Shown piece after piece: positions 16,976 to 52,599 of a DNA stretch of 64,000 nt. A program made the translations under genes and the position numbers. Location of the stretch: positions 51,552,773 to 51,616,772 of the forward strand of contig JARDVH010000110.1 of NCBI GenBank assembly GCA_030324005.1. The letters run 5' to 3'. The notes below the pieces were generated by a model. The model ran no database searches and was not told where the DNA came from. It saw only the letters and a list, made by a program, of their open reading frames with translations. The stretch comes from Negaprion brevirostris (taxonomy: Eukaryota). Within the stretch, counting starts at the first letter, position 1, and every line of letters begins with the position of its first letter.

Positions 16976-17551
16976 CTTATTGAATGAAATATAACATTAG
17001 GAACTCAAAATGTTTGCTTAAAGACTGAAAAAGAACCTACAAGCAACTGGCCCATATATTTGACTCAGCTGTTCCTTATAGTGATTTTAATGTCGTCAAT
17101 ATATTTCTCCAAAGAAGTAAATCATGAATTGGCCCCTTTGACTCTTCTCACTTTCCATTATAACTCTAAAATAGTCATTGCAGATCCACAGATTAATTAC
17201 TTAAGGAGAAATCAAAATAAATCATTGGAATATTTGCAAATATTTGGTTATCCAGTCACAATGTGCCTGAATTCCACACACCGCAACTCCTGTTTACGAG
17301 ACAGGAATGAGGACATCTGTTAGGCTTCTATCAGTGCCATGCTGCAGTCAATGGAGCAACCCAGAATTACATTCTAGTTTTCCATCTGTCTTTGTGGATA
17401 CGAGCTTGGTCTTTACTTAGTGCCTTGTCAAATTTCACAGCTGCGTTTGGAAATCACCATGTGAGGAATCCTGAGCACAAATAATATTGAGCACCAGTTG
17501 CTAACTCGCAATTCAACTTGTCTTAATTTGCAATCCATTAGACTGGGTTAC

Positions 17552-17864
17552 CTGTTTCATCATTATGCAGGTGCCTAGGGTCAACTGAAGACCGAGAGTT
17601 ATCCACTTGCTCGTTATACAGGATTTGACATGTTGCACTGACTGAAAACACTGGGCTTTCCGTTTCAGTGGTGGATGGTACATTTTGACTAGGACCAAGA
17701 GTATATGATAGGTTTTCTGTTTCTGTGTTATATGGGATGTTGGACTGAGTTATCAATGAAGAAGTGTCTCGGTTTGGTAATACCGAAGAGAAAGTCTCTT
17801 TTGACCTCGCATTGTGGCTGTTTTCTCTGATGTCTGCCATCCCATTGTGGACTGAAGGCTGAAA
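17552..17864 (-). CDS. Coding exon, Ser/Thr-rich: (FQ)PSVHNGMADIRENSHNARSKETFSS...PRHLHNDET
   Basis: Acceptor cttatttctttgtcag| (alternative tttcag| at 17858), open frame, donor CAG|GTAACC; phase 0 to 1. Confidence 0.7.
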
Positions 17865-19189
17865 CTGACAAAGAAATAAGCAAATAACTTTATTCCATAG
17901 AACATCAAATCAAAAAGTTAATGTAGCCCAGGCAACGACATACACAAATTGTATCATCACTAATTTAAATTAAATGACATTTAATTCTCAGCTCTGGTCG
18001 ACACTCCATCGAACAAACTCTCTTTGACCTAAAGTTTTTGCTCCCGGGTCAGGAGCGCCAAGTTGAGACGTTTTCTGATTCTGTGAACCTGACCCAGGAA
18101 TATGAGACTAAGTAGGTTTTTGTTCTTGGAGGTGAACTGGATTTGAAGTTGGACCTTGTGATCCCAGACCTAGTGCAGAACTGACTGGTGCCAGGGGCAA
18201 GCTGACTGGAAAGCTTATCTCTATGCATTGGCATTGTGTGAAAGATAGAAAACATTAAAGCAAAGAAATCCCTCCAGCCCTTATGTTTCACCCTGTTCAT
18301 ACCCTATCAATGTGAACCCATGCCACTTCATGCCCCTATACCCAAAATCCATGGCTGTCCCATACCCCGTGTTAACATACGCCCCGTACCCAATGAAAGC
18401 AATTTTTTAAAACCACCCCCGACAATTTTTTTTCAAAGATTTAACGAACAGTTCTTTTAAATGTCTTGAGAGCTTGACAGCTCCCTTAGGAAATTTTGAC
18501 AGGTCCTCTTGATAGTTCTGCTAGGTCCTCTTGACAGCCTTGACAGGCATCTTGACAATTCTGGAGGTTTCCTTTTTTCAAGTGTTTCTGTTTACAGTTT
18601 CAATGAGTTTGACACTGATGAGTTCATGCAAATTTTACATTTCTCTCTGATCTTAAAAATTTCCAAAGGGCATCTGACCTCTCACAAAGGGTATCCTGGG
18701 ACAAGATCCAAAAGGAGTAATTTACCTCTCCAAAGACGTACCGGCCTATCCAAAAAAATCCCCCAAGTTCAGATCCAATCTCACCAAGTCTAATCTGCCA
18801 CATTTTGCATTTCACTCTCCTGGCCTAGCAAAATCCCACTTATGTGGAGGCAGCCAATGATTTAAGTGGTCAGCTATTTCCTGGAGCAATTCAGCGTCCA
18901 TTTATTTGTAAAGCGCCATTATTTGTCTTGCTATTGTTATGTTGCAATTAAACATGAACTCACCTACGTTTAACTTTTTAGTGCCTAAGACCAAGGGCCA
19001 GATTTTCACTACCAAGGCAAGTGGCGAACCTTGGAAAGTTTTTTGGTAAAGAGCTCTGATGTATACAATTTTAATTGCAGAAGGGAGGGTGATGGGGGTG
19101 GTGGGATGGTGATTGGGGATAGAGATAAGCCTGTTGACCCTGGAAGCAGGATGTAGGTGGTTAAAAGGTGCATGTTACACTTCGCTTTT

Positions 19190-20230
19190 TTTAATTTTTG
19201 GGACGTAGACATTGCCGGCTAGACATTGCCCATCCCTAATTGCCCTTGGGAGGATGGTGGTGAGCATCTTCTTTGATCCCACGAGGTGTAGTTACACTCA
19301 CAGTGCTGTTAGGGAGGGAATTCCAGGAATTTGAGCCAGCAACAATGAAGGAATGGCAACATGTGCAAATTACTTAATACTTGTGTGAATTTTACTAGCT
19401 ACTTGTTAGCCCAACCCTTAATATTGTCTAGGACTTGATGTATTTGGATGTGGGCTGCTTCAGTATCTGAAGAGTTGCAAAATGGTGCTGAATGTTGCGT
19501 AATCATCAAACATCCTCACCTCTGGCATTATGAGGAAGGGAAGGTCATCGACGGATCAGCTTAATATTCTTGGACCTAAGATACTACCCTGAGGAACCCC
19601 TGCAGTGATACCCTAGAACTGAGATGACTGACCNNNNNNNNNNNNNNNNNNNNNNNNNTCTTTTGCTCTTGTTTGAACCATGGCTGTAATGAAGTCTAAA
19701 CATAAGAACACAAGAAATAGGAAAAGGAGTAGGCCATCTAGCCCCTCGAGCCTGCCCCACCATTCAATAAGATTATGGCTGATCTGAAAGTGGTTCAGTT
19801 CCACTCACCTGCCTGCTCCCCATAACCCTTAATTCCCTTAATGATCAGAATGCTCCTGGTGAAACTCAAAATGGGTGTCCATAAGCAGGTTATTGCTCAG
19901 CAAGTGCCGTGTGATAGAACTGTTTATGACCCTTTCCATCACTTTAGTGATGATTGAGAGTAGACTAATGGGGTGACAATTGGTTGGAGCGGATCTGTCC
20001 CACTTTTTGTGTGGAGCTTCCTCCTCCAGTGAGTTGTTTGTTGTCCACTCTATTCATGAGTGGATATGGCAGGACTGCAATACTTAGACATGATTCATTG
20101 GTTGTGGATTCACGTAACTCTATCCAACACTTACTGCATATGCTGTTTGACATATACGTAGTCCCTTGTTGTAGCACCACCAGATTGACACCTCATTTTT
20201 ATAAATGCCTGGTGCTGCTTCTGATATGTC
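19190..20230 (-). mobile_element. LINE 3' region (family with tail ...aagggcaattagggatgggcaa...), interrupted by a CR1 tail at about 19700-19850
   Basis: Shares its tail with copies at 41530-42230 (-), 43025-43145 (-) and 45700-46040 (+). The clade is not resolved. Confidence 0.6.
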
Positions 20231-21627
20231 TTCCTGCACTCTTCATTATCTCAGTTGTTTTAGAATTTATTAAGCCCTTTGGCCCTCAAGTGATGAAGGA
20301 GCAGCACTCCGAAAGCTGATGATTCCAAATAAACCTGACTTTAACCTGGTATTGTGAGACTTCTTACCATGCCTACCCCAGTCCAATACCAGCATCTCCA
20401 CATCAGAACAGGTAAGCAGGTTTCCTTCAGTGAACAATGCTGATTTTCATTTATTCCAGATAGTTATTATTTATTTTCCCAGTCACATGAAGAAATTAAT
20501 CTGGGGTTACTGAGTTATTAATCAAAGAGCATAGCCACCATATTCCTTAATATGAGTAAGTCCTTTACATTGACAGTGATGTTCCTTTCTCTATGAATAA
20601 GATTTCAGGTGAAGATTTTCTGATTTATCTAATTATAAGAACAATGTCTTTGGTAGAAAGAGATATTTAGACTTTACCTGCACTGGTGATTTTCTGCCAG
20701 ATGCAAGAAACTTTGGTCTCACACTACGGAAACCCTTTGCCGCCAAACTGTTCTGGGGTTTCCCTTCTGGCAAACTTGGATTCCAACCTACGAGAAAAAT
20801 GTAAAAGGAGAAAGGAATGGACATGAGTATGTTTGTTTTCAAATGGAAAGTGTTTCTTTCTGCATACAATGAGCCGGATTTTCAATTACTGGTGGATTGT
20901 TGGTGCTACTGATAATTGTGTTTCTGGAGGGCCTCTCCAGACCCCAACTGGATTTATAAATTAATTCAATTTGGATGTTGTTTGTGAGTTCAGGGATTGG
21001 TTCCACACTGGGCCAAAGAAGTCATTTTGTAATCTGTATGATTTTACAACCTAAAAATCCACACTCATGTATTGAACAAGAATTATTCTACCAACCAGCC
21101 AAAAACAGATGATTGAATGTGCTGTGTTCCACAAACATGTTAGGATTGAAAAATAAGTAATTAACCAACTTCAAGGCTTGAAATATACTAACATCAATAT
21201 GTTTAAAAATATTAATTTGCTGTTGTACATTTTGTCTTTGGGTAAGATACCACTGATAGCAAATCTAGATTTTTATCCATGGCCATCTGGATAGTGTGCA
21301 GGGTAATGTTTGAGGATTAATACAAATTCAGATAAGGGAAACATCATAAACTCCACGGGCACAATGGTCAAATCCAATAAAATTAACCCAACTGCAACAA
21401 CTGAGCAAACGAACAACTGTTAAACGACAGACTCAATTCAAGGTGAGGTAATGTTAATACAAAGGTTGAAAACTGAGGTTTTGGAAACTACCTTTGTTAA
21501 TTAACAATGAGAGAAAGAGAGTTATTCATCAGAATTTCAAGCGCTCCCTAGGACAGGATTTCATGGAAGTCACTGTCAGCGAGGAAACCTCAAATCTATT
21601 TACACTTTCACTTGGACTGATCGACAG

Positions 21628-21932
21628 GGGCAGCACGGTGGCACAGTGGCACTGCTGCCTCTCAGTGCCAGGGACCCGGGTTCGATTCCCAGCTTGGGTC
21701 ATTGTCTGTGGGAAGTTTGCATGTTCTCCCCACGTCTGCATGGGTTTCCTCTGGGTGCTCCAGTTTCCACCCACAGTCCAAAGATGTGCGGGCTAGATGG
21801 ATTGGCTATGCTAAATTGCCCTAAAGTGTCAGGGGGACTAGTTAGGGTAAATGAGGATAGGGTCTTGGTGGTACTGTGGTCGGTGCAGCCTTGATGGGCC
21901 AATGGTCTCCTCCTGCAATGTAGGGAATTCTA
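21628..21932 (+). mobile_element. HE1-type V-SINE, tail A (CR1-like tail ...gatgggccgaatggcctccttctgcactgtagggattcta)
   Basis: tRNA-derived head with A/B boxes (tggcacagtgg, gggttcgattccc) and V-domain gggtttcctc..gtgctcc.gtttc. Other tail-A copies: 9646-9985(+), 13868-14185(-), 41140-41315(-), 53957-54215(+), 59230-59550(-), 60450-60910(+). Confidence 0.85.
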
Positions 21933-22072
21933 TAAATAAAAACCACAAGTTGTAAAGGTCTATCATGTATTTGATAAGTATGCCTTTCCCTTTTAAAAAT
22001 AAACTGCTTTTTAGGATGGAAATGGTGGGGGCATGGACCGTGGTATCGGGATGACAATAATACTGCATTGTG

Positions 22073-22378
22073 ATGGCATGGTGGCACAATGGTTAGCACT
22101 GCTGCCTCAAAATGCCAGCGACCTGGGTTTGATTCCCAGCTTGGGTCACTATTCTGTGCAGAGACTGCACTTTCCCCCCGTGTCTGCGTGGGTTTCCTTG
22201 GGTGCTCCGGTTTCCTCCCACTGTCTGAAAGATGGGCTAGTTAGATGCATTGGCCATGCTAAATTCTCCCTCAGTGTACCTGAACAGGCGCCGGATGTGG
22301 CGTCTGGAGGATTTTCATAGTAACTTCATTGCACTGTTAATCTAAGTCTACTTGTGACACTAATAAATAAATAAGGCT
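22073..22378 (+). mobile_element. HE1-type V-SINE, tail B (...gtgttaatgtaagcctacttgtgacactaataaataaacttt)
   Basis: Same head and V-domain with a different tail. Other tail-B copies: 4691-4817, 12535-12840(+), 23436-23715(-), 24749-24895(+), 43355-43648(-), 62510-62790(-). Confidence 0.85.
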
Positions 22379-22494
22379 TTGCTCCTGATTTGTATTCAGT
22401 GCATCCCCCATGTCAGTGCAAAGCCCGGGAGGTACTGGAGGGGCGGGCGGGGAGAGGAATCATGTTCAAACGGGTTTTAACCTTTGTAGTCAGT

Positions 22495-22870
22495 TGTGGT
22501 TCTGGGGATAACCGCTGAGCATTCTAACCTCTGAGTCATGGGTTTGAGCCCAACCCCATTCAAAACAAGTTTAATGTGGTGATCAATACTGCGTGAGTGC
22601 TGCACTGTTGGAGCTGCTGTCTGTGGGTGAGATATTATACTGAGACCTCTCTCCTCTTGGGTGTACACGGAAGATCCCATCTGGCGAAAAGCAAGCAAGT
22701 TCTCCTGGTGTCATGGTTCGACATTGTCACCAGAAACAAATTATCTGGGCCTTTATCCCCTTTTTCGTGGGAGCTTACTGTGCGCAATTTGCCGAGGTGT
22801 TTCCCACATTAAAACATCATCATCCATAAAATACTCTGGAATGTTCTGAGGTCATGGAAGTTGAGGGCAT
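22495..22870 (+). mobile_element. DeuSINE (SacSINE1/AmnSINE1-like)
   Basis: Deu-domain-like gctgcactgttggagctgctgtc...aagatcccat...gtgggagcttactgtgcgcaatttgccg. More copies at about 25250-25500(-), 25550-25880(+) and 30620-30780(+). Confidence 0.7.
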
Positions 22871-24920
22871 AGAAGTGCCACCTGGCACAGTGGTGTAGTG
22901 GTTAGCACTGCTGCCTGACAGCGCCAGGGACCCGGGTTCACTTCCCGGCCTCGGTGTGCAATTTGCACATTCTCCCCCAGTCTGCATGGGTTTCCTCGGT
23001 GTGCTCCGGTTTCTTCCCACAGTCCAAATCCCGACGAAACCCATGCAGACACGGAGGACATGCAAACTCCACACAGTCAGTCACCCAAGTCTTGGAATCG
23101 AACTCGGGTCCCTGGTGCTATGAGGCAGCAGTGAGACAACATAATGTCAGAGAAATTAACCCATTAACAGCCAAGCATTATCCAATCAGGTCTTGCTTTC
23201 CAATTAGCAGTACATCACAAGAATGGATGTGTTGGTCAATGAATGGCTGGAATGTGTAGAAAGATCATGTGACAAAACCTCCCGGAATACTTTTAATCAC
23301 AGCTGACAGCCGCACACAGAGTTGATTTAAGATATTCCAGTTTATGGATGTGCTTTATAAAGGCCTAGCAAAACCTCAAAGGCAAAATATAAGCAGACTA
23401 CAAAGATGTGCAGGTTAGGTTGACTGGCCATGTTAAATAAAGTTAAAGCTTATTTAATAGTCACAAGTAAGGCTTACATTAACACTGCAGTGAAGTTATT
23501 GTGAAATTCCCCTAGTTGCCACAGTCCCCTAGTTGTTCGGGTCAAAGCACCTAACCAGCACGTCTTTCTGACTGTGAGGGGAAACTGGAGAAAACCCGTG
23601 CAGACATGGGGAGAATGTGCAAACTCCACACAAACAGTGACCCAAACTGGGAATCAAAGCCGGGTCCCTGGCACTGTGAATCAGCAATGCTGACCATTGT
23701 GCTACTGTGCCGCCTCTTGAAAGCACAAATTGTTCCTTAGTGTCAGGGGGATTAGCAGGGTAAACACTTGGGGTTATGGGGATAGGGCCTGGGTGGGATT
23801 GTTGTTGGTGCAGGGTCAATGGGCCGAATGGCCTCCTCCTGCACTGCAGGGATGCTATGAGTTCTTTAAAACTAGAAACGTGCAGCAGGCCTCAGGCCTC
23901 ATCAGCTCAGCAGGTTGGTGTTTAGATTTTAGTGTTACTTACTTTAGTGCTCCACTCCATTGACGTCAACGCATCTGGAATCCTTGGTTTTAATTATCTG
24001 CTCAGCAAAATATTGGAAGGATCAAAGCCATTGGTTTTGGTTCCTGTCACAGTCCTCATCCATTCCTCTCCCTGGCAACTGTCTGCGATTGAACCAAGTT
24101 GTTTACTGTCATTATCAGAGCCGTTGCTAACAAATCCATTGACATACAGCAAACGGGTGTAGGAACTGGGAGCCTCAGGCTGATGCTTAGATAATTGCCA
24201 ATCTTCACATCAAATTCTGTGCTTGGACTTGAAGGGAGTAGGACATGCTGTGAGTTTCTTTAACCTAATGATGCAATGAAAGGCCAGTCATAAGTGAGAT
24301 CAGAATTCTTGATGCTTCATCTCCCACGTCAGTGAATCAGAGACTATTTTTGTGATTAATGATTTTCGGGTCGGGGACTTTCACTGACATTATACTGCCC
24401 GAGTGATGTCGCAATTTTGGGATATCTTTGCAGAAATATTTTTAAAGATTTGCCCATGGTGATGACAAACTCCACTGTGTTGTAATGATGGACACAACTC
24501 AACAAAGTCAAAAGTGGCAGATACAAGAGGACAATTTCAACGTGGCAGCCAAAATATATCATGGAATCCCTACATTGCAGAAGGAGGCCACTCGGCCCAT
24601 CGAGTCTGCACCAGCCACAATCCCACCTAGGCCCTATCCCCATAACTCNNNNNNNNNNNNNNNNNNNNNNNNNNNNNNNNNNNNNNNNNNNNNNNNNNNN
24701 NNNNNNNNNNNNNNNNNNNNNNNNNNNNNNNNNNNNNNNNNNNNNNNNATTGGCCATGCTAAATTCTCCCTCAGTGTACCTGAACAGGCGCCGGAGTGTG
24801 GTAACTAGGGGATTTTCACAGTAATGTAATTGCAGTGTTAATGTAAGCCTACTTGTGACGATAATAAATAAACTTTTAAAAACTTTTTAAACTTTTCTAT
24901 TTAAGAGAGAGCAGGATAAC

Positions 24921-24983
24921 AGCGAGAGAGGGGAGGGTAACAGCGAGAGAGGGGAGGGTAACAGCGAGAGAGGGGAGGGTAAC
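24921..24983 (+). repeat. Minisatellite, 3 perfect copies of 21-bp AGCGAGAGAGGGGAGGGTAAC plus a degenerate copy upstream
   Basis: Read directly: 24921-24941, 24942-24962, 24963-24983. Confidence 0.95.
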
Positions 24984-27900
24984 AACATGATAATGTTGTG
25001 GTAACCAAATAACTTTGTATTTGTTATAAAACACACCTGATGTCATCTTAAGGTCACTCAAAGGTTCCGCTTCACCTGTAATCTGCAGAATTTTTATAAA
25101 GTAAAATTGATATTCATTCTTCTGACAGTTTCCATGCATTTTAAAAATATCAGTTTCAGATATTGTACCCCCCAGCCCGCCCTCATCCTCCCTGTAATAT
25201 CAAAGCCTGTGAATTTGTTGGTTAAAGTCAGGTATCTGTTAAAGAAATAATTTAGCATTTATTCAGGACTTTTCACAAACTCAGGGCATATTGCAATTAT
25301 GTACTTTTGAAATGTTGGATTGCTGTAGTATCATTTGGATAAATGACCAAATGATCTATTTTGGCGGATGTTGTCTGAAGGATAAGTATTGGTCAGGGAA
25401 ACAGGAGAATTCCATAGTTTTCTGTGCATGTGTCACAGGATCTTTTATATCCACTGAGAGGTTAGATTGAATCTCACTTTAACCCGTTATCCGAAGTATA
25501 TATCCCAGGATTATTGTATTCATATAACCTTAGTTCATTGGTGCTACGATAATTTTTGATACAAAAGGTTAAATGTCAACTCCAGGGTTTGAGCAATTAA
25601 TTGTTCAGTGCGGGAGAGCTGCATTGTTGGCAGAGTCTATTATATGAGCCACTAAGCTAAGGCCTCTGTCTGTCATTTTAGGTAGTTGTAAAAGATCTCC
25701 TGGCACAATTTGGGAACATTGGCCAATATTGATTCATGGAACAACACCATCAAAATGGATTAGATGGTCATTCATCTCATTAGAAGATCATTGTACACAA
25801 ACTGGCTGTGAATTTTATTGACACAACAGTGGACTACACTTTAAAAGAATTCCTGGAAACAGTTTGTGAAATATTTACAAGGAAAACCATTACAAAAAAT
25901 GTGTTCCTTTAAGAGATTCAACTTGTCCTTTATTTTACTCAACAGACATGAAAAGCTAGGCACCATGAAATGCCTCAGTTACTGTTTAAATAACAACAGT
26001 CTGAACTCCATTTACTGATTAACTGCTGTTACTGCACCCTGATATTTTTGGCAGTAACATTATTGACTCAAAGGTTGCAACCAATTTAACCTCTCTTTTT
26101 ATTAAAAGAAAACATCCCCAAGAAACCAAAATAAGACAGGAGCATTTTAGCTAGATCCTTTTGCACAAAGCAGGATTTGTTTCAAGTGGGCTTCACTGCG
26201 GTTTGAAGCGAGGTGCGTTAATATTCAATCAATTTGGTCATACAGCAAGTTGAATCTCCCGAAATGTAGAAAAATACAAAAGCTAGTTGTGTTATCATAA
26301 TCTATGACCTCTGTTTGAGTCACCAACAGATTCATTACACAGACTGCAGAGTTGTCCTTCTCAGTGCAGCTTCTCCATTCTGTGGTTTTATTACTTAAAC
26401 ATTCTCAGCAGGTGGAATAACAAATTCAGGAGTAGAGGCAAATGAAAGCATTTCCTAAAGTCCTCTGCTATGGAAATGGGGCCCAAGTCTTCATAAATTT
26501 GATTTCCAAATGCAAAACGTATGCATATATGGTGAGCTGACTGATTTTGAATTGCATAATAATGTAGATATTGGCACAATAATTGAAATCAGAAATGCTG
26601 GAAGCATGTAGAAAGCTTGATACATTCTGTGGAGAGCAACAAGTCAACCTTTTGAATATGCTGTTTGTTAGAAGAGTTTGCGATGAAGGGCAATGCAAGA
26701 AAATGTTGACTTGGCAACTCTGGTTAGATGGATAATCCTGGTGATTTCATCAAATAACATCTTCAGAGTTCCCATTCAATCAAACAGCCTGTTTCCTCCA
26801 ACCTCAATATTTAGAAATAAAAAAAAACACATTTTTGTTTAATGTCACAGTATTGCTGGAAGTAGTGTCCAGGAGATTAATCTCAAATTCATGGAGATTC
26901 TCAGATAATCCTGAAGGGATTGGCAACAGTAGAATTACAGGAAAAGGTGGGTTTTAGGAGATAGCGGGATTAAGGGGACAGCCATAAATATGTGAACTGA
27001 ACCCCATGACTGGTTTGAGGTCTATTTTTGCTCTAGGCTGATATCGAGTTCTTCTTTCAACATAAAGTTAATTCTGTTAAATTGTTACGCTTCTTCAGCC
27101 ACCACAAAACTGCACAGTAATTAACTTTTACAGAACTTAAAATCTTAGGTTGTAGCATTTAGTTCAACTCAGTGAGTGACGGGAATCCAGACCGTAAGCC
27201 TCACCCACTGGTTACACTCTGGTACAACAGTTGTCGCTTCTCTTTTAGAGTGCACTTCAGTTTGAAAAGTTTAAGTAGAGGGAATATAAACAAAAAGGAT
27301 AAAGAATTCCAGTAAAAGAAAAGAAATGTCAAGCTCAAGAACTGGAGGGAGAAAACAGAGTTTGTTTTATTTTAGCTTTAGTGTTCTGTTTATAACTCAC
27401 AGGATTAAGGTTGCAAATTATGTTTATTTAACTTTTACTCACAGAACAATGATTCACAATAATAATTTACAACCCCTTGTAAATGCAAAGTATAACCATA
27501 AGAATTGGTCCAAAACCTGTTGACGTTGAGTGTTTGTTTTTGCCTTTCGAGTTTTTGTTTTGTTATAAATTATAACCGAATCAGAAATTATCCCAAGTTT
27601 CATTCTGCTATTTTGAGTGAAAAGAAACAAATAATTATAACTCTTTGTGCTTACCAACTTTGGATTTTAGTCCGAAAAACACCAGCAGTAATTAATTTGG
27701 TACACTTCCCTTTCCCAACACCAAATTACACGATTAAACTAGAGCCTGTATTACAGCATGAGGAAGCAGTCACGTGGGGCAAAGTCAATGTAAGTTAGAG
27801 AAACAATATTGGTGAACAGAATCAGGGTAGGGTGTTTTGTCAAGAATTGCTATGCAGGTATATGGGAAGGGAACGTTGACGTAAATTTCACAAATGGCCC

Positions 27901-29459
27901 GAAGCATTCTTGGATAATTAGGTCTGCTTAAATTCTTCTCTGTTTTTGCTAAAATACAATAACACGTACCACAGCTGTAGCAACTGGAAAAATAGAACAA
28001 TATGAAATTAGACATACCTGGAGGAAATTATAAAGTACTCACTTTTTAAAGAATTGAAATCATGAACAGTAAGAGCTTGGCCTAAATAGTCTTTGACATT
28101 CTTGAAGATCCTAACAGGTTATATCCGCTATTTAGCCCCTCAAACTTGTTCCTCTATTCGTTGAGAAAGGAGCTGATCTGAAAATCCACTCTTACACCAT
28201 ATCCTTTAATGCCATTGACTTAAAGAAAAGCTCTCAAATTCAGTTTTTAAATTGTTACAATTATGAGCTATAAAAGGCTGTTATAGTCTGGAAGTGTCAG
28301 TGGAATCGTCTACTCTAAGGGCCATAATCTGCTCCAGGCCTCCATCCAAGCGAGTTCTGACATGTGCATGCCACATATTTCCAGACATGTTTTGGATCAG
28401 CGTCAAATTCCACTGATGGCTGAGGTGAATTTGGTGGGGTTGTGGGTAGCGAGACAATTCAAATTGTGTGGTCATTTGAATCCTGACAATGGGATGCAAA
28501 ATATTTTCCTCACGGCTTCTGGTGGGAATGGCAACCCACCATGATGGTTGGGACTGCAATTTCCTGCCATCAGGAAGCCCTTTTTTTTTAGCTCATTCAA
28601 TATTGACCATGCCTCCCCCCACCCGCTCCCTTCAGCCATGCACCCTGACACTGGTGGGAAGGGACAATTATGCCCTTTCAAGGTAAAATGAAGGAGGTCA
28701 CTTGACCTGTTCTGAAGCCTACTAAATGAATGGCATGGCCACCACAAATTAAAGCTGGGGGGGTGGCCTAAGTTGTTTTGCTGGAAAGAAGCACAATGTG
28801 TTCACACTTGTACACAATTACAGCAGCATTTGTGTTTACAGTGGTTAGACCACTTGTATCCAAAGTCCCAGGAAGGAGTTGAGAATGTTGGGTTGTAAAA
28901 CAGTTGTGTGTTAAACTATCCAATTACTTCCAAGTGGGAAAAAAAGAGTTCTCGTCTCAAGGACAGCTAATCAGCTTTTCTATCTGGATCCAAGGCCCAT
29001 ATAATTCACATTGCCACGGAAATAGGCTTTGAGAGAAAAAGGTTTCTAAGCTATCCATAAAAATCACAGACATAGTCAGATTGCCAGAATTTTGGAGAGA
29101 AAGCAATTGTAAGCTGAAAGTCTCTGTAGCTCACTTGGCAGGAATGTAGGCTAATGACCATGTTTGAATTAAATAGCCTAAATTTGTGAGGAGTTAAAAT
29201 GAAGCTGGAAGATTTGACTAGCTTGCACTAGGCAGAGAATCTCAAAGAAAACTCTCACAGTGAAGGACAGTTCTGGGGTGGCTAGATACCAGGCTGCATA
29301 AGTTGCCAGGTAAAAATAATGTTTAGTTAATAATGCTCTTAGTCTGTGCTTTACAGTAAAACTATTAAAATATCATGTTGTGTCATTTTTTTTGCTATCA
29401 ATTGGATGTTCAAATTTCTTTATTTTGATATTATCAGTCTCTATGGGGATTGTAACAAT

Positions 29460-30030
29460 ATGAGCATTTGATTTTGCACCAATTGCCATTTGCAGTCAGG
29501 AGTTTCAAATCTCTCTCAAACTCTGCATGATGTGTTTCCTAATTTCACTCCTGTGAAGTATGCTTCTAATTATGTCTCCAGTCCTACAATTTCTATCTAG
29601 CGGAAGTAGGTTCTCCCAATTTACCCATCTGTTCCCTTCAGTAACTTAAAAACTTAATCTCTCCTTAACTTAGGAATCATTCTAGTGAACCTACACTGCG
29701 TATCCTCCCAGGTAAATCTCCTTCCTGAGGTGCAGTACCCAGAACTGTTCAAAGTATCTATGTGCAAACTTACCACAGCTTTGTATGGCTGAAACAAGAT
29801 TTCTATCTCCTTGTTTGCTGGTCCTTTAGATATAAAGGTCAGCCCATCAGTATTTTTAATTATTTTCTGAGCCTGCTGATGACATTTTAATGATCTAAGT
29901 ACCTGGGCCCCCAAGTCGCTTCAGACCTTGACTGTTTCTAGTTTTTCACCATTTAGAAAAGTAACCAGTTTGAACCTTTTAAATTACAACTTGGGTGACT
30001 TTACATTTAGCCACATTGAAACCCCATAAC
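29460..30030 (-). mobile_element. CR1 LINE fragment
   Basis: LGAQVLRSLK..QAQKIIK, YKAVVSLH, QCRFTRMIPKLR are CR1 ORF2 C-terminal motifs. Confidence 0.7.
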
Positions 30031-32012
30031 AGCACCCAGACCATCCCTGGAGATTTTTATTTTACAGAAGAATATTATGTAGTTCAGTGCAGTCTCATTT
30101 AATATTTGGAAAATTCCATTATACCCAAGATACTTGTAATCACTCCCATTATGTTATCCTTTTATCAAAATATAGAGCACAATTTTACACTCCCCCACCG
30201 GTGGCTTTGCAGGCCGGGGGATTGGGATGTAAAACTCCTCAGATGGCCTTCCCAGCGGCTTCTTCAACTCTGAACTCTACATGGGATAGATGAGGCCTAG
30301 ACTGGGCCTGCACTTGCCCCAGTTAAGGCCCTTAGTGGTCAACTAATGACCACCTCTGTGCCATTTTCAGGCTGGCAAGAGGTGTAGAGTGGCAGGAAAG
30401 AAGTCCAGGCTTCCCGTAGGACACGAGTGTGACACCTTCACTAATAGCCTCCTTTCAACATCAGGCACCACCTCACCCCCTCAAAAAGGTCTGTCCCTTG
30501 CAAATGCTCCCTCACCCATTGCCTCTCCACCCACAGCCCCATACACCCCCTTCTAACCCTGCCCTCTGGTCACCTGTGGGTACTTAGGTAACACTCTTAC
30601 CTCCAATTTGGAAAAAAATGTGTGTTTGTCTCCAGTTTGCCTCTAGGTTGATGATTCAGTGTGGTACCGAAGGGGCGCTACACTATCAGAGATGCTGACC
30701 TTCAGGTGAAATTCACTTGAGGCCTTTTCAGTTTTTTCAAGTACTATACTATAAGGAATCCCATGGCACTGCACAAGCCAGCCCACAAGCGACCCAAGAG
30801 TGAAATATTATTTAGAGGTGCTTACATAATACACTTCTGAGGTTTGATATGAAGGCAAATTATTGGTCAAAGTACGTTCAGGATATCTAAGCTGCAATAT
30901 GCTGAACTAGAACTGCTCATTGGTGCTATTATGTGCCTGTAGTGCTAATGTCTCTAGTTCCTTCTGTGTTAACATCCCCATCCCTTAATGAATACAACAG
31001 CAAAATATCAAAGTTAGTCAAAACTGGGATATAGCAACTGCAGCTTTTTGCTAGCTTGAAAAATGAGCATCATTTAAACATTCCAGTAAAATTTATCTGG
31101 TGTAACAATAAACCAATGTCCCACCCTTCTTATCTATGGAGTCCTGTATTACAGTGACTGGTTTTACAATCCACACCTTTGTTTACCTCACTGCTAATAG
31201 TGGTTCTTTTTATCTCAGTATATAGTAATGTTCCCGAGTTACCTAATCAAGGACACACCTTTCCAAGTCTTGTAATACCTAAAACAATCTCTCATAGCAT
31301 TCACTTTGAACTTTGGGCAGCCTGAAGTAATGAGGTGGCTGCGTTCATACCCGTAGCAGAGTTCAAAAGTTAAATTCCAATCCAGCTTTCTGTGAAGCCT
31401 CCTAAAATTGAAACACTTGGTTCATCATACTATCACAATTTAATATTTTGATCGTTGATCATTTAACCATCGGTTAAATGGTTAAAAACTCACCGTATAA
31501 GAATAAGATTAAACAGATCAAAAACCACATCATACAAGCTTGTATTGGTTCTCTCTACTACACACTAACAAAATGAAAGCATTTGTTGTGTTATCTGATA
31601 GAATTGGACATCTTAGAAGCTTAAAATACAAGATTTCATTGTGTAGAATTCAGTGATCTGAATCCCTTTATCCCATTGTCAAACACTCACACTATAATGG
31701 AGATCACATTATCTGTAATCTCTATCACACAATAATACATTAGATTGTTCAGATGACATCATAAACTATAAAAGACCGAGTTGATACAAGCAGTCTAACA
31801 GAACTATAGGATATAACAACTAACAATTTCCACAGTTTTCTCTTAAATTCCTCAATAATTTATTCTTTTTAGAAATAGCCCAGAATATTTTGCAGAGTAT
31901 TAATCCAATAGCTAAAACAATCTGAAACTCAATATTCTTTAAAGTCCTTAGGAAGATCACCTTCTTGGAATTACAAGACAGTGTTTTGCTAAGTTGAATT
32001 TCTTATACTTAC

Positions 32013-36230: not shown

Positions 36231-36989
36231 ATGTACTCCATGAACAGTAGCCATGGGTGGGGGTGGGGGTGGGATTGGAAGGGTTGAGAATGTATGGAGT
36301 GCATGGGGTCATGAATTGGCGTAGAGGAGTCATGGTATGTGAGGGGTAAGAGGAGAGGGATAAACAGCATCCAATACAACTAAGACCAGTTCCTGAGAAC
36401 CAACACAGGATTTTAACTAACCTCGCATGCCCCTGTGGACACCTATGATCCATTTCTAGGATTGAAAAGCCAGACTCAATCCCTGCCCGCCTCCCTGCAG
36501 TGAAAATTGGGTCTGGTGAGGCCCTTAAATTCCAGGTAGGTCTGCCAAATTGGGACTTTTCCTGATTCGAGCTACTTGTCTGAGTAGCGAAAATCTGATC
36601 CTCTGTCTCAAAAGCCATTTAGCATAATTATGTCCTTATAAAAAAAAGCCTTGGACTTATTCTTAGCATAGTTTTAGTAAATCTGTGTGAAATTATGACA
36701 CTTGGACTTACTGAGTTGGAATGCATCTATTATTTTTAATGACTTTTCTTATTTGAAGAAGTACTTTTTTTAAATCAATTATTGCTGTGACCTTTAAATG
36801 CTGTCTTCCCATGCAAGTCATGATGTGGAGATGCCGGTGTTGGTCTGGGCTAGATACCGTAAGAAATCTCACAACACCAGATTAACTTGATAGTTGGACT
36901 TTAACCTGGTGTCATGAGACTTCTTACTGTGTTTTCCCGTGTAAGCACAGCAGATGCATGACCTCCATTTTACTCCCTTGCTTCCAACC

Positions 36990-40800: not shown

Positions 40801-41947
40801 TAAGATTAGTACACCCGTGAGTATGGTCTGTTTAGAAATCTTGAAGTCAGCAAAAAAAGCTCTTTTGCTCTTGCTGCAAAATTTCCAGTAGACTTTAGAA
40901 ATGTGAAACAACTGTGGAAATCACCAGAAACATGTAGAAGTGCAAAGAACCTTTACATTGAGGAAATTAGCTCCAGTTTGTCAAGAAATAAACAAAATTT
41001 CTGAGTACAAATTAGTACTGGGGCATTCAAATCGATTAAAAAACTTGAAGTTGGACGATTCGGATTAAGAGTTTTTAATCCAATTAGAAACAGCGAAGAT
41101 GCGGAAGGCGGTGGGGGAGGGGGGAGGGTGATCAATGGTCTTAGAATCATAGAATCCTTCAGTAAAGAAAGAGGCCCATCAGTGCATTGAGTTTGCACCA
41201 ACCACAATCCCATCCAGACCCTATTCCTGTAACCCCGCATGTGTACACTGCTAATCCCACTGACACTAGCATCAATTTAGCATGGCCAATCAATCTAACC
41301 CACACATCTTTGTACTTGCTATCATTTATAGTTGTATTCTAGGAGGTCTTCTGCCAGTGCAGATCATTTTCTCCTCACTTGCCTGTGACAATTTGTTAAT
41401 TGCTGAAAAGCCCGGTCATTACAAACATAATGGGTGTAAGGAGGGCTGGTCACTTGTCCTTTCAAAAGGCTAATAAATGGACCACCATTTAACCAGAATT
41501 ATTCATACTGTTACAGAGGTTTGGGTTTTTTTTATTCAATCGTGGACGTGGGCATCGCTGGCTGATCAAACTGAGCCTGAGGTACGAGTGCCCATTTCCA
41601 AGGCAGAACTCTGTTTTGGGAAAGGGATTGGCATGCCACCTAAAAAGCAAGCTGATGACTGTGTGTGGAATCTTGATTTGGGAACCCCACTGCCATTTAT
41701 CAATTTCCTCATCCCAGCATTTATTGCCCATTTCTAGTTTGCCCTTGAGAAGATGGTGGTGAGCTGCCTTCTTGAAGTGCTGCAGTCCATGTAATATGGG
41801 TTGACCCACAATACCGTGAGAGAAGGGATTGCAGGATTTTGACCCAACGACTGTGAAGTTATGGCGATGTACTTCCAAGTCAGGATGGTGAGTGGCTTGA
41901 AGGGTAACTTCCAGGTGTACTTCCCTTGTGTCTGTTGCCCTTGTCCT

Positions 41948-42147
41948 GATGTGGATATGCCAGCGATGGACTGGGGTAAACACAGTAAAAAGCCTGACAA
42001 CACCAAGTTTAAGTCCAACCGATCTATTTGATAGTAAACTCACTAGCTTTCGAGGTTTCCCTCATACACCTGAAGAAGAGGGAAACCTCGAAAGCTAGTG
42101 AGTTTACTATCAAATAGATCGGTTGAACTTAAACCTGGTGTTGTCAG
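41948..42147. mobile_element. Non-autonomous Penelope-like palindromic element with 11-bp TSD
   Basis: Arms 41992-42063 and 42078-42149 are reverse complements at 70/72. GCCCTTGTCCT is duplicated at 41937-41947 and 42148-42158. Related degraded copies lie at 20290-20405 and 36820-36935. Confidence 0.8.
42067..42100 (+). ncRNA. Minimal type I hammerhead ribozyme motif (Penelope-associated type)
   Basis: CAC-CTGAAGA-A-GAGG(GAAA)CCTC-GAA-AGCT-A-GTG: CUGANGA core, 4-bp stem II with a GAAA loop, GAAA, palindromic AGCU, UH site and a CAC/GTG helix I. Confidence 0.6.
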
Positions 42148-43649
42148 GCCCTTGTCCTTCTGCATGGATGCGGTTGTGGGTTTGGAAGGTGTTGCTGAGG
42201 ATCATTGGTGAATTTCTGCACTGAGTAAGCTTCCTTTTAAATAAAATCTTGCAATATGAGTTTGTAGTTGAGGGTGTAGTTCTATGCAGGTGGATATTGT
42301 AAATAATGGATGTTAAATTACATCTGTTTCCAGGCATTATGCATCCAAATAAGAGTCAACATTGAGTCTGAGATATAATTGCCTATTTCTGATGCAAAAC
42401 TCTGTTTTGGTAAAGGGATTGGCATGCTACTTAATAGCTGGCAGAAGCAAGTTGATGAGGGAATCTTGATTTGGGAACCCCATGCCATTTATCAATTCCC
42501 TCATTCCTGTCATAACTTTACACAGCTGAAAGTGACCTTGGACAGAATGAAGTATTTTTCAAGGGATCATGAACATTAAAAATAGAAGCTGGAATATGCC
42601 ACGTGGCCATTTAATAAGATCACACTTGATCTTCTACTTCAATCATATCTCCCCACTTTCCTTGATTTTCTAAAATGAATTAACATAAATGAAAGTATAG
42701 TCGGAACTGCTCAATAAANNNNNNNNNNTTGAAATTGCACATCGTTCTGATGAACATTATCATCCTTCCCAAAATTCCGGGATCACGAGTTCAAGAGGAT
42801 AATTTCCACTTGTTCTAGACTCCAGGAGAAACATCTTTGGAACGTCAATTCTATTAAGCCCCTTAGAAATTTTACATTGGGAAAATCAATTATTCAAATT
42901 AAGAACATGGTACAGGTCACCCCTCATGGAGTTGCCTACCCCTGGGAATTGGAATAAGTCTGCACAGTGCCGCTCGAAGCAGTGTTATTCAAACACATTT
43001 CACCCCCTTATGTTTCAGTGGGATTTTTGTTATTCTTTCGCAGGATGTGGGCATCACTGGCTTTGTTGCCCATCCCATATTGCCTTCAAGAAGGGGATGA
43101 CGAACTGACCTCTTGAACCATTGCAGTCCATACAGTGTAGGTAAACCCCATTATGCATTCATTGGTTTGCTGTATATCTTGGTTATAGATTTACCTCAGG
43201 ACAATGCAGAAATGACAATAGTTCTAAATTTACAACTGAGATACTTTAAAATATCTTTACTTAAAGGAATTTGACACATGTAGAAACATAAAAACATGAA
43301 AAATAGGAGCAGGAATAGGTGACTCAGTCCTTTGAGACTGCTCTGCCATTCATTAGTTTAAAGTTTACTTATTAGTGTCCCCAATAGGCTTACACTAACA
43401 CTACAATGAAGTTACTGCAAAAATTCCCCAGTCGCCACACTTTGGCACCTGTTTGGGTACACTGAGGAAGAATTTAACATGCCCAATGCACCTAACCAAC
43501 ACGTCTTTCAGACTGTGGGAAGAAACCAGAGCACCTGGAGGAAACCCACACCGACACAGGGAGAGCGTACAGACTCTGCACAAGTGACCCAAGCCAGGAA
43601 TCAAACCCGGGTCCCTGGCTCTATGAGGCAGCAGTGCTAACCACTGCCA

Positions 43650-44663: not shown

Positions 44664-46479
44664 AGAGTTCCTGCTTTGGGGACAGTTGGCAATCCAGGTG
44701 AAAATTGTGCCCAAAATTAGACTCATTTTGAGACTGAAATGAATTGCTGAGCATAAAATCAATTTACTTTAACAGAAAGGTCAATAACCATGGTGGGATG
44801 GGGGCAGGGGGCGCACAGGTTTGAAGTAATTGATAGAAGAATTAGAGGGGAGTTGGGGAGAATTGTTTTCACCCAGCAGGGGCTGAGGACCTAGAACTCA
44901 CTACCTGAAAAGGTGGGATGGCAGAAACCTTTGCTGCATCTAATAACTTCATGGATATACGTAAGCTACAAGCTGCAGACCAAGATTTGGAGAATGAAAT
45001 TCAGCTAGTTAAATCTCTTTCAGCCAGCACAGGCAGAATGGATTGAATAATCTCTTTCTGTGCATATCCATGATTGTATGATAGACCCAGCAACAAGGCA
45101 AATTCTAGATGGCTGGGGATGAAGTCAGAAGTAATAGATGTCTCATGATTCCTGATGCAGTTTTTACTGATCAACTCACTTTTTCATATAGCTTTGCCTC
45201 TTTGCTGTCAATGTTGGAAAAATGAGTCAATACCCTGCGTTCATGAGTCTACCACAGTGTACTTTGTGCAGAAGAAAGGGAGATAGGTGATGCCTTAAAA
45301 TTCAAAGATATCAAAGTGGTTGGGCTGGTGTTTTTTTATCAATTGTCATATTTTGGCATGTGTTCTTATTCCCTTATAAATGTCCTAAGACACTATTTTG
45401 CCTTTACCACTACCAGTGAAGATTAGGCTTTTGGGTGAAGTTGTTTTTTTCACTAAAGCAATCTTTGTTCTATGTTACTCTCTGCAGACATTTGTTGTGC
45501 ACTTGCTGTGCATTTCCCTGTCTTCAAAGTTATGACTATTCATTCCAATACACTGGACCAAAAACTGGGGGTCAGTGTTTAACCTAACAACTTAGTTCCA
45601 TCATACAACCAATTAAATTGTGCCTTACTGTGAACCTATTCATTAAGTATCATTTTTAAAACTTGGAAAATGTTATCATCAGCATGCGCAGGAAGGAATA
45701 TCTTGTGCAGTTCACTGAAGATCCTTAGACAGCACTTTTCAAACCCATGATCATTTCCATCTTGAAGGACAAGGGCAGCAGGTATATGGGAACACCACCA
45801 CCTGCAAGTTTCCCTTCAAGCCACTCACCATCCTGACTTGGAAATATATTGCCATTCCTTCACAGTTGCTGGTCAAAATCTTGGAATTCCCGCCCTAACA
45901 GCATTGTGAGTCAACCCACAGAACATGGACTGCAGCGATTTAAGAAGGCAGCTCACTACCACCTTCTCAAGGGTAATTAGGATGGGCAATAAATGCTGGA
46001 CAGCCAGTGATGCCCATTCCCACGAATGAATAAAAAAAAGAGTAATGATCTCTGTAATTTCTTATGAGTGATATCGTGCTACCTACTTAAGAACTATCCT
46101 TCATGTCCTGTGACTCAATCATTTTGGTCTTCATTTCAAAAGCTTCTTTCCTATTCCACAGTTTCTTTTCTGTAACTTAGCAAAAACTTTGTGAAAGTNN
46201 NNNNNNNNNNNNNNNNNNNNNNNNNNNNNNNNNNNNNNNNNNNNNNNNNNNNNNNNNNNNNNNNNNNNNNNNNNNNNNNNNNNNNNNNNNNNNNNNNNAT
46301 TGAATGGCGGGGCAGGCTTGAAGGGCTGGATGGCCTACTCCTGCTCCTATTTCTTATGTTCTTATGTTCTTATGTTCATCTATAATCTCTAAATACATAA
46401 ATAGTCTTTGTGATACAAACGTCCCTTAGGTCTCCAATTAGATCTATGAGTGTGAAATCGTATCAAAGTAGCATGACTA

Positions 46480-47180
46480 AGCTTGTCAGAGTGCATGAAC
46501 CTGCAACTTACTCAACCTCAAAGTTATTTTGATGATGATGATCTGACCATTTGTAGATTCATAGAAATTGATCATCTGGTTCTGACGTAGCAAACAATAT
46601 AGAGAGTGCCTGCTGATTGGTGCAAAGATTGAATGTTCTACCATAGAGATACATGTGCCATTGTTCACATATGTAGATACAGGTGAATGCAACCACATTG
46701 AGAGTTGTGAGAATGGAAATATCATGTAAGCTGCTGGTCATTCACTTGCTTTAATGTAATGTGAGCATTCAGATCTAATTGCAGTTTCCTGCTACTTCTG
46801 GTGTAACATATGTGTTGATTGAAATATGTGCGGACTGATGGAGATGTTACCATAATCTTTATCATTTCAAATGCTGTTTGCTGTACTATTGTCCTTTCCC
46901 ATTGTGAATTTTTGCACAGCAGTTTAAGAGCCTTTGTAATCTCTGCCTCCTTAGGAACCAATTTGTGATAAAAGCTAATAGTATCAAGGAACAATGCCAA
47001 CTCTTTCATGTTAGACGGTGTCAAAAGCACATGAATGGCTTTGACATTGTTGTGTATAGGCTTCACTCCAGCTGTTGTCACTCTGTAGCCTAGAAAGTCA
47101 ATCTTGAGTGCTGCAGATGTGAATTGGTCTTTTCTGAGCATCAAATTCTATTGTGTAAATTGAGTGAACACTGCCAATAA
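46480..47180 (-). mobile_element. Ty3/Gypsy pol relic: RT C-terminus, connection and RNase H
   Basis: KIDFLGYRVTTAGVKP..VKAI..TPSNMKELALFL..FYHKLVP..QQTAFEMIK, then ICEQWHMYLYGRTFNLCTNQQAL..IYKWS. Confidence 0.85.
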
Positions 47181-50494: not shown

Positions 50495-50752
50495 AAAAAA
50501 GATAAAGTCGCCATAGTCCCAGATGACCATCAGCTACTCTCTCCTTTGAGCTGACTGGTTGGTGGTGAAAGGTTATTCATGAAAGCCCTGCCTTCTCAAT
50601 CCTACCCCACACCTGATAGTATCACTTGAGGTGTGGGATAGGATTGAGAAGGCGGGGCTTTCATGTACAAACTCAGCCAGTACGGGAATTGAACCCATGC
50701 CATTGGCGTCGCTCTGCCATGCAAACCAGCCATCCAGCCAACTGAACTAACT
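50495..50752 (-). mobile_element. tRNA-derived SINE containing an internal inverted duplication
   Basis: Minus-strand head ttagttcagttggctggatggctgg...gggttcaattcccgtac (A/B boxes); hairpin at 50578-50665. Confidence 0.65.
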
Positions 50753-52599
50753 AGCTTCCAAAGTGAAATTTTGACAGCGGTGGGATCACATGATCATGAA
50801 CCAGGATCATAATGGGCCATTNNNNNNNNNNNNNNNNNNNNNNNNNNNNNNNNNNNNNNNNNNNNNNNNNNNNNNNNNNNNNNNNNNNNNNNNNNNNNNN
50901 NNNNNNNNNNNNNNNNNNNNNNNNNNNNNNNNNNNNNNNNNNNNNNNNNNNNNNNNNNNNNNNNNNNNNNNNNNNNNNNNNNNNNNNNNNNNNNNNNNNN
51001 NNNNNNNNNNNNNNNNNNNNNNNNNNNNNNNNNNNNNNNNNNNNNNNNNNNNNNNNNNNNNNNNNNNNNNNNNNNNNNNNNNNNNNNNNNNNNNNNNNNN
51101 NNNNNNNNNNNNNNNNNNNNNNNNNNNNNNNNNNNNNNNNNNNNNNNNNNNNNNNNNNNNNNNNNNNNNNNNNNNNNNNNNNNNNNNNNNNNNNNNNNNN
51201 NNNNNNNNNNNNNNNNNNNNNNNNNNNNNNNNNNNNNNNNNNNNNNNNNNNNNNNNNNNNNNNNNNNNNNNNNNNNNNNNNNNNNNCAGGGAAAGCAAAG
51301 GAAATGCTAATGAATTCATCAAGGAGAGAGAAGCCTTCACGTAGTTTTACAAACGTCATGCCCAATCACAATGGAGTAATAAACATGCAATAGTGCAAAA
51401 TAATATGTTCTTTTTTCCCAATGGTAGCTCATTGGTTACTATGCTGTTTAAAACTAAGTAACAAACAGCTAATGCCCTGATCTGTGACTGAGAAGTGTTA
51501 ATAGCATCGTCACTGTGCTACAGGTCTCAGAACAGTTATACCTAGATTCAAGACTCACTAGATCCAAACTGCGAACAGTGAACAAAAAAACTGCACCTCA
51601 CGTTAAATTACAAGAAGTGACATCCTATCCAAGAACATTCCTTTCCATAATATTTGTTTGACAACAAATGCATCCATTCTATAACATTCTAATGGAAACA
51701 GAAATGATATCAAAATTCTTCCACCTACACAAGAATGACTGCACTTGAGAGTAATTCATTGCATGCCGAGTCCTTTAGATATTTCGGAGACACAATGTTA
51801 AGTTGCTTTATAATTGTATGCTTTCTCTATTTTAAATTCAATCTTCTTTCAATAACTGGACTAAATATCATGATGCACACATGACTTGCGCTTTATTTGA
51901 TCTTGACAGTTCATTTGATTAATGTTGCACCCAAGGAGCCCATTGCATAGCTTCCATCAATATATTTATTGCAGTGCATAACATATGTAAGTAGGTCATG
52001 CATTGATAAGAAGAGAAATCTATTGCTTAAGTAGCGCAGTAGTAACCCTGTGATTTAATACAATATCGATGCAGTCCTAAGCATGCTTTTAAACTAAACG
52101 TGTTACTTAAAATTTGAACATTAAAGAAAGTCACGTTTCATCTCCAACATCGTCAGCTAAAGGAAAGTAGACCCAATCCTTACACAGAGCCTTGGGTAAG
52201 GCTGACAACCCTCCTATTCAAAGATTAATGGGAATTGTCATCAATGACAAATTAATTGGTCTTTTTTAGATCTACTTCTTTATTCATCTTGTGTTCTTTC
52301 TTCCCGAGAGCTTGCCTTCATCATCTGCTGCCCTGGGGCTGCAGCTCTGTAGTCCTATTACTCAATCCCTTGCCAGACCCCAGCAGGATGCAGGAAAAAC
52401 CTGTGTAGGACGTGACAGCTGTCCCAAGAGAAATCCTGCCGTGTCCCAGCAATTAGAGGAGCAGTTGCTCAGGCACTTTCTGAAGCCATCTGTGCTAGTA
52501 GGTGACATTGAACAGAGCNNNNNNNNNNNNNNNNNNNNNNNNNNNNNNNNNNNNNNNNNNNNNNNNNNNNNNNNNNNNNNNNNNNNNNNNNNNNNATAA

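Follow-up and report, generated by a model that had tools for sequence, protein, structure and literature searches.

A probable Penelope-like element stub with a minimal hammerhead motif, inserted into an older retroposon of Negaprion brevirostris

A 200-bp insert in the genome of Negaprion brevirostris consists of two 5'-truncated copies of a high-copy repeat end, arranged head-to-head, with a tail on the inverted copy only. It lies in a 64,000-nucleotide stretch of contig JARDVH010000110.1, which was analysed as a whole and is referred to here as the window. The locus is very probably a stub of a Penelope-like element (PLE). More specifically, it is probably a dead-on-arrival insertion of an endonuclease-bearing PLE, in which about 100 nt of the RNA end were copied twice in opposite directions, likely from two staggered nicks. 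This insertion layout is already described for PLEs, the locus is one of very many stubs, and its type of ribozyme is known.

Anatomy of the insert

The insert and its duplicated target site are composed of the following parts:

41937..41947, no strand: left copy of the target-site duplication (TSD); its last T also equals the terminal base of the family, and the loose ends of the family precede 41947
41948..41991, minus strand: unpaired, one-sided 44-nt tail (probable PLE end), on the inverted copy only; its end coincides, to the base, with the homologous ends at 36821 and 20405
41992..42063, minus strand: left arm, a 5'-truncated copy in inverted orientation, which ends at G10.1 of stem II and lacks the CUGAnGA core
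42064..42147, plus strand: direct 5'-truncated copy without a tail (14-nt loop and right arm)
42067..42100, plus strand: minimal type I hammerhead motif, with a predicted cut after A42097
42148..42158, no strand: second copy of the TSD, on the right; the 2 nt at its start lengthen the hairpin and agree with the template continuation as given by the left copy

The two hairpin arms (41992-42063 and 42078-42149, 72 nt each) are complementary at 70 of 72 positions, with mismatches at 42006/42135 and 42015/42126, and enclose a loop of 14 nt (42064-42077), just as an earlier note on this DNA had described. The predicted fold has a z-score of -21, and none of 200 shuffled sequences was equally stable. 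The earlier note spoke of a hairpin element of about 200 bp; the insert (41948-42147) does have this length, but the hairpin spans just 158 nt of it, the left 44 nt (41948-41991) being the unpaired tail. The TSD, GCCCTTGTCCT, which had likewise been proposed, is exact over its 11 bp at 41937-41947 and 42148-42158 and allows no extension. Exact 11-mers at both ends were found in 11 of the 58,368 N-free 200-bp intervals of the window, all 11 being offsets of this locus. The final 2 nt of the right arm are at the same time the initial 2 nt of the TSD. The insert termini do not form an inverted repeat (1 of 20 letters match), and a MITE or other transposon with terminal inverted repeats was rejected on this count.

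Read along the minus strand from 42063 to 41948, the inverted copy opens with the first base of helix II of the hammerhead and continues through the 44-nt extension to a fixed end. The left arm is thus an antisense copy without the core, as had been claimed. The direct copy (42064-42147, plus strand) begins 6 nt ahead of the core and ends 44 nt short of the fixed end.

The insert was compared with contigs from four public runs (X1, X3, X7 and X13) of the 24 listed, using a 1.4-kb stretch and a likeness of 88%. In 36 contigs of run X3 the family runs on into the tail past 42147. Both arms carry a variant, 42024C/42117G, that is absent from more than 99% of the family depth, where T/A is present. 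Each 72-nt arm also has one private change: position 42006 departs from the family, and 42126 from the left arm as well as from the two other copies in the window. At 41993 the C of the insert is an uncommon letter, the family having T in 92-98% of the depth. The central joint rests on the assembly, since none of the contig pieces listed spans the hairpin centre.

The hammerhead motif and its predicted folding

The hammerhead core is complete, and its parts are distributed as the earlier note had stated. The CUGAAGA core (42070-42076) lies within the loop and is followed by an extra A at 42077, while stem II, GAAA, AGCU-A42097 and GUG all lie within the right arm. Helix I (CAC/GUG) comprises 3 bp and helix II (42078-81/42086-89) 4 bp; GAA occupies 42090-92 and a palindromic AGCU 42093-96. 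The minimal hammerheads of PLEs are described by Cervera and De la Pena (2014, PMC4209133) as having an extra base after A9, a G10.1-C11.1 pair and a palindromic remnant of helix III. The window motif has the same core, post-A9 nucleotide and G10.1-C11.1 pair and a palindromic 15.2-16.2 remnant, together with C3-A9, G12-A14, A15.1, U16.1 and H17. Its helices I and II, of 3 and 4 bp, are shorter than those given in that source for the Schistosoma families (4-5 and 7-8 bp, respectively). A covariance-model check, put forward earlier, came back empty, with no Rfam hammerhead match, whether judged by the gathering score or with E allowed up to 10.

On its own (42064-42105), the hammerhead fold lies 1.0 kcal/mol above the best predicted fold. 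This difference rises to 4.8 kcal/mol inside the direct copy and to 37.8 kcal/mol when the left arm is included. In a plus-strand RNA the predicted hammerhead fold is lost if transcription starts at or before about 42058 and kept from about 42060 on, so that the suggestion that the long hairpin sequesters the ribozyme is borne out as a prediction. By prediction, two copies can form a properly nested double hammerhead of -16.3 kcal/mol, versus -20.0 kcal/mol for the best dimer fold. Helix III requires a partner, and a scan of the window revealed no second core with this layout near the locus. The left arm was considered as a dimer partner and rejected: its AGCU is followed by U-UCG, which is unable to pair with the CAC that closes helix I. 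The arms out-compete its fold and there is no second core nearby, for which reason the folding models predict an inactive ribozyme, which is likely a passenger from the terminal repeat and inert here. Low activity of such minimal motifs, even as dimers, is reported in parts of PMC4209133 and of a review (PMC6765202).

Within the family, position 42097 (H17) is T in 72-77% of the depth, and no other letter reaches 10% at 42067-42096 among the rows listed (40 of 59; contigs 88% alike). One contig row of run X13 has a joint from 42105 to 42086 that places a second core right behind the first, giving a unit of about 41 nt; such a tandem core pair could form a dimer, in the manner of a retrozyme.

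Relationship to Penelope-like elements

A pattern built from the window hammerhead matched 15 metagenome loci and no viral contigs. Helix II, the pairing of which is not part of the pattern, forms in all 15 (4-7 bp). When the seven loci with identical motifs were dropped, the eight distinct metagenome motifs and the window motif gave 63 cells, all of which pair, with 13 changes on both sides; none of 500 shuffles scored as high. Helix I is uninformative in this comparison, since it is fixed by the search pattern.

Nine open reading frames (ORFs) were taken from the metagenome loci: two are above the Pfam cut-off for GIY-YIG, and four match RVT_1 under the cut-off. In one locus, L012, a GIY-YIG ORF above the cut-off, with a CX5CxxC linker of the Neptune/Nematis type, ends about 275 nt upstream of the hammerhead, and the 57 nt behind the hammerhead align with the window element (score 37, versus 31 for the best of 1000 shuffles). 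Homology to the window element downstream of the hammerhead was absent from the other 14 of the 15 loci. Through L012, the window family shares with Neptune/Nematis-type PLEs (CX2-5CxxC linker, then a C-terminal GIY-YIG) the same hammerhead type and the homologous 57 nt behind it, a distant homology only, and from these sequences we infer that its clade may be of the Neptune/Nematis type. The link to Penelope-type minimal hammerheads made in the earlier note is thereby upheld, by the motif features as well as by the ORF and downstream homology of L012. In the window itself, none of 276 frames (275 of at least 58 aa, among 553 of at least 45 aa, and one exon candidate) matched GIY-YIG or RVT_1 in Pfam; this result, like the downstream homology in just one of 15 metagenome loci, weighs against the PLE reading.

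Several metagenome loci have features of their own. Loci L001, L008, L011 and L013 are hammerhead units of about 5 kb in which an additional long ORF precedes the one for RT and/or GIY-YIG, and appear to be two-ORF PLE-like elements. The additional ORF of L008 has a weak GDSL-lipase match (E 1e-4, under the cut-off), and L008 and L013 have terminal overlaps of 127-138 nt, as in tandem or circular units. In L010, a 94% inverted repeat (1-109 and 983-1091) surrounds an ORF fragment resembling a GIY-YIG C-terminus (no Pfam match); L004 matches L010 and has an RT fragment, and together they may represent a larger inverted PLE arrangement.

The layout of the insert is that of known PLE insertions. 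According to passages in Craig (2021, PMC8557442), these are 5'-truncated, often with an additional inverted 5'-truncated copy and a tail of 30-40 bp at one end; parts of PMC8969392 and PMC6155905 agree. Examples in Arkhipova (2013, PMC3846280) include an inverted pLTR with a 31-bp tail and a TSD of 8-10 bp. The window insert resembles the insertions of endonuclease-bearing PLEs in those portions of PMC3846280 and PMC8557442 in its head-to-head inverted copy, its tail at one end, its TSD of similar length (11 bp, versus 8-10 bp), its position in another retroelement and its heavy 5' truncation. It differs in its slightly longer tail (44 nt, versus 30-40), in retaining only about 100 nt of the end with no ORF, and in its GC-rich target. 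PLE minimal hammerheads are, in the relevant sections of PMC4209133, mostly single and in truncated copies, with pairs on opposite strands 100-700 bp apart also noted; at this locus, unlike in such pairs, the copy on the opposite strand is cut ahead of the core. The non-LTR retrozymes described in part by Li (2026, 10.64898/2026.07.22.740005) are likewise non-coding, with a type I hammerhead and an origin in PLE terminal repeats, but they are tandem units with at least two complete hammerheads, whereas the window contains a single inverted insertion with one core. Identity as a retrozyme was rejected for the single core and the lack of tandem units at the locus.

Other copies of the family

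Two further stubs are present in the window, both of a related subfamily:

36821..36938, no strand: older head-to-head stub, with an inverted copy that has the full tail and a direct copy that ends within the tail
20290..20405, plus strand: single-orientation stub with the tail and a decayed hammerhead

The tails of all three stubs end at the same base. The stub at 36.8 kb differs in its centre from the insert at 42 kb, and its flanking duplication has decayed (13/16). A 23-letter arm pattern matched three times in the window, where 0.01 matches were expected, and not at all in the viral and metagenome contigs.

The four runs gave 17,068-31,035 records each on the 1.4-kb stretch at 88% likeness. 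The summed depth was 10^5-10^6 over the element and about 3-10 over the unique flank, which indicates high repetition and is not a copy number. Between 151 and 247 contigs per run depart from the reference at 41947 into unrelated flanks (agreement 0.34-0.35), and the depth drops from the tail towards the hammerhead, as expected of 5' truncation. Seven other joints from left arm to right arm were seen among the rows listed (497 and 279 further rows), with offsets from -9 to +64 nt; at 88% likeness, some of these joints may be alignment effects. In one joint of run X7 (42003 to 42098, a single row), the direct arm of another copy begins exactly after the predicted cleavage site. Among the loose letters at 41947, a weak majority ends in GTCA in three of the four runs, the copy at 36.8 kb showing the same letters. 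Read along the sense strand of the element, this would continue as ATG, so some copies may pass from the tail into the start of an ORF. The family may already be named in Repbase or Dfam or in published supplementary alignments.

Host repeat, age and surrounding window

The insert interrupts a repeat that has a sister copy downstream:

41526..42200, minus strand: host repeat, interrupted by the insert; 3' end of a high-copy retroposon that is older, A-rich at its end and probably LINE-like
45722..46039, plus strand: sister copy of the host repeat, holding a single target site (45764-45781)

When the insert and one copy of the TSD are taken out, the flanks form a continuous alignment with the sister repeat (45722-45976), in which 201 of 250 aligned columns are identical (80%); the empty site that had been pointed out in the sister copy is thus confirmed. 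The earlier note had called the host a LINE tail. A high-copy, A-rich repeat is indeed interrupted, but no RT was found in the host repeat, and its assignment as a LINE follows from the A-rich end and the high copy number. Of the 11 bases of the target, 7 are G or C, a GC-rich composition, whereas an AT-rich target is typical, though not universal. Since a preference for AT-rich targets is reported, in portions of PMC11167929 and PMC3846280, for Poseidon and Penelope, this counts against the reading of the locus as an endonuclease-bearing PLE.

The contigs of run X1 match the unique flanks without differences, and the flanks in runs X3 (organism label B) and X7 (label C) are about 2-4% different. 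The right flank passes into the direct copy in record 23 of X3 and record 32 of X7, and the host repeat passes into the inverted tail in record 28 of X7; these junction contigs carry 26-28 element letters, which is below the 31-letter rule for bridging. The insert is likely real. Its presence in labels B and C suggests that it is likely fixed and older than the split of these lineages, rather than very young. In the earlier note it had been termed young; this holds relative to the host repeat, than which (at 80% identity to its sister) the insert is younger, yet it is likely not a fresh polymorphic insertion. One private change per arm is in line with the 2-4% divergence of the flanks and gives no sign of constraint. 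Run X13 shares its organism label with X1 and differs by about 2%. At position 42458, X13, X3 and X7 have 7 letters more than the window and X1.

No host gene was found by Pfam in the 276 window frames, which gave six weak matches, all under the cut-off. A stretch of about 155 bp in the tail of the host repeat (41566-41720) is a diverged direct copy of the unique sequence that lies 790 bp downstream, at 42356-42513. The stretch is bypassed (41564 to 41713) in contigs from other copies of the host repeat and looks like a local templated insertion. Elsewhere in the window, 45488-45570 (plus strand) may be a coding exon, with ends that resemble splice sites and an open frame of 27 codons (no Pfam match). 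A tRNA-like sequence at 50674-50756 (minus strand; 32.9 bits, just above the Rfam cut-off) is likely the head of a tRNA-derived SINE, and a weak RT_RNaseH match at 46562-46741 (minus strand; E 3e-4, under the cut-off) is likely a remnant of an LTR retrotransposon.

Mechanism of insertion and alternative explanations

At this locus both target strands continue as antisense (cDNA), the top strand from the tail end and the bottom strand from a point 44 nt inside it. The end of the top strand matches the template by 1 nt, and that of the bottom strand pairs with the template continuation over 6 nt (2 exact, 2 G-U and 2 exact). From this geometry we lean slightly towards two-sided priming from both staggered nicks. 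An RT-GIY-YIG protein would nick both strands, 11 nt apart; the 3' ends of the top and bottom strands would prime cDNA synthesis through these pairings, at the tail end and 44 nt further in, respectively. Both cDNAs would stall at or just past the hammerhead on uncut RNA and would then be joined, and repair would fill in the TSD. Copying ran past the cleavage site (after A42097) in both arms, so the RNA template had likely not been cut, and the 42024C/42117G variant in both arms fits one source. Against two-sided priming stand the GC-rich target and the rarity in the family of the C at 41993, the letter that provides the microhomology at the right end. The shared variant and the C at 41993 could instead stem from fold-back copying or from later correction within the hairpin.

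In vitro, a purified PLE protein nicks and extends both strands (Frangieh 2024, PMC11167929). The same account, in the sections concerned, gives two RT start sites bounding the tail, a predicted dimer and the use of mainly uncut RNA. The window insert would resemble the Poseidon element of Anolis, PAc, in having two RT start sites around the tail, extension of both strands and an uncut template. PAc differs, in the parts of that source that deal with it, in its preference for ATT targets and in starting without target homology, whereas the ends here match by 1 nt and by 2-6 nt. In the open-licence literature we found no paper that states two-sided priming for inverted PLE stubs. It is a tentative idea, and on balance a doubtful one, that small hairpins of this kind preserve, as fossils, a record of how a dimeric PLE protein primed from both sides of its target.

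A PLE origin would also accommodate a hairpin formed by self-priming, in which the cDNA or an antisense template folds back at the hammerhead and joins a short, tail-bearing cDNA at the other nick. Self-priming has been proposed for head-to-head palindromes (in a section of Arkhipova 2013, PMC3846280), and it explains both the variant shared by the arms and the rare, target-matching C at 41993; a loop of 14 nt occurs here and in one other joint among those listed. However, adding the tail would take one more template switch, three of the seven joints listed have offsets of 40-64 nt, which is long for a fold-back, and both strands are extended in vitro (PMC11167929, as far as cited above). We therefore regard this route as unlikely, though well worth keeping in mind.

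The remaining explanations are much less probable. The earlier note had seen in the locus a distinct non-autonomous hairpin element, which would be MITE-like or retrozyme-like and move as a 200-nt unit with its ribozyme. The sequence is very high in copy number, no source element of the family was seen in the window frames or the contigs searched, and vertebrates have non-autonomous PLE derivatives with type I hammerheads (Li 2026, 10.64898/2026.07.22.740005, in part). Such a unit would nevertheless be without terminal inverted repeats (1/20, the left arm starting 44 nt inside) and, at this locus, without tandem units; its centres vary among copies, its depth falls from tail to hammerhead as in 5' truncation, and its layout is that described for a PLE product, so that this proposal has little chance of being right. 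Retention of the locus for a host function, either as a regulated ribozyme or as dsRNA for Dicer or ADAR, is very improbable. The core is intact, the insert is common to three organism labels, any read-through RNA should, by prediction, fold into a duplex of 72 bp, and PLE copies yield small RNAs in a rotifer (Arkhipova 2013, PMC3846280, in the section on this point). Against this stand the single private change per 72-nt arm, which is in line with the 2-4% flank divergence, the lack of a host gene among the 276 frames in Pfam, the dependence of the hammerhead fold on a transcript start within a few nucleotides of 42060 and on a partner core, and the Rfam miRNA matches, which are generic hairpin scores, all far below the cut-offs. 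We give hardly any credence to an artefactual palindrome. None of the listed pieces spans its centre, the junction contigs hold 6-28 element letters and the window has many N gaps; yet there are two differences between the arms, the TSD is exact, and the left and right junctions are correctly oriented in runs of other organism labels (records 28 and 32 of X7 and 23 of X3).

Implications

As a single locus, the insert matters little; it adds one data point, in which both arms extend across the cleavage site and have a rare variant in common. The class of stubs to which it belongs would provide a cheap test bed both for the origin of the inverted-plus-tail layout and for the in vivo processing of the template by a terminal hammerhead. 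If two-sided priming from staggered nicks holds true, the central joints and end microhomologies, examined genome-wide, would show how PLE inversions form. An excess of arms starting exactly at 42098, where one of the seven joints listed starts, would reveal cutting of the template in vivo.
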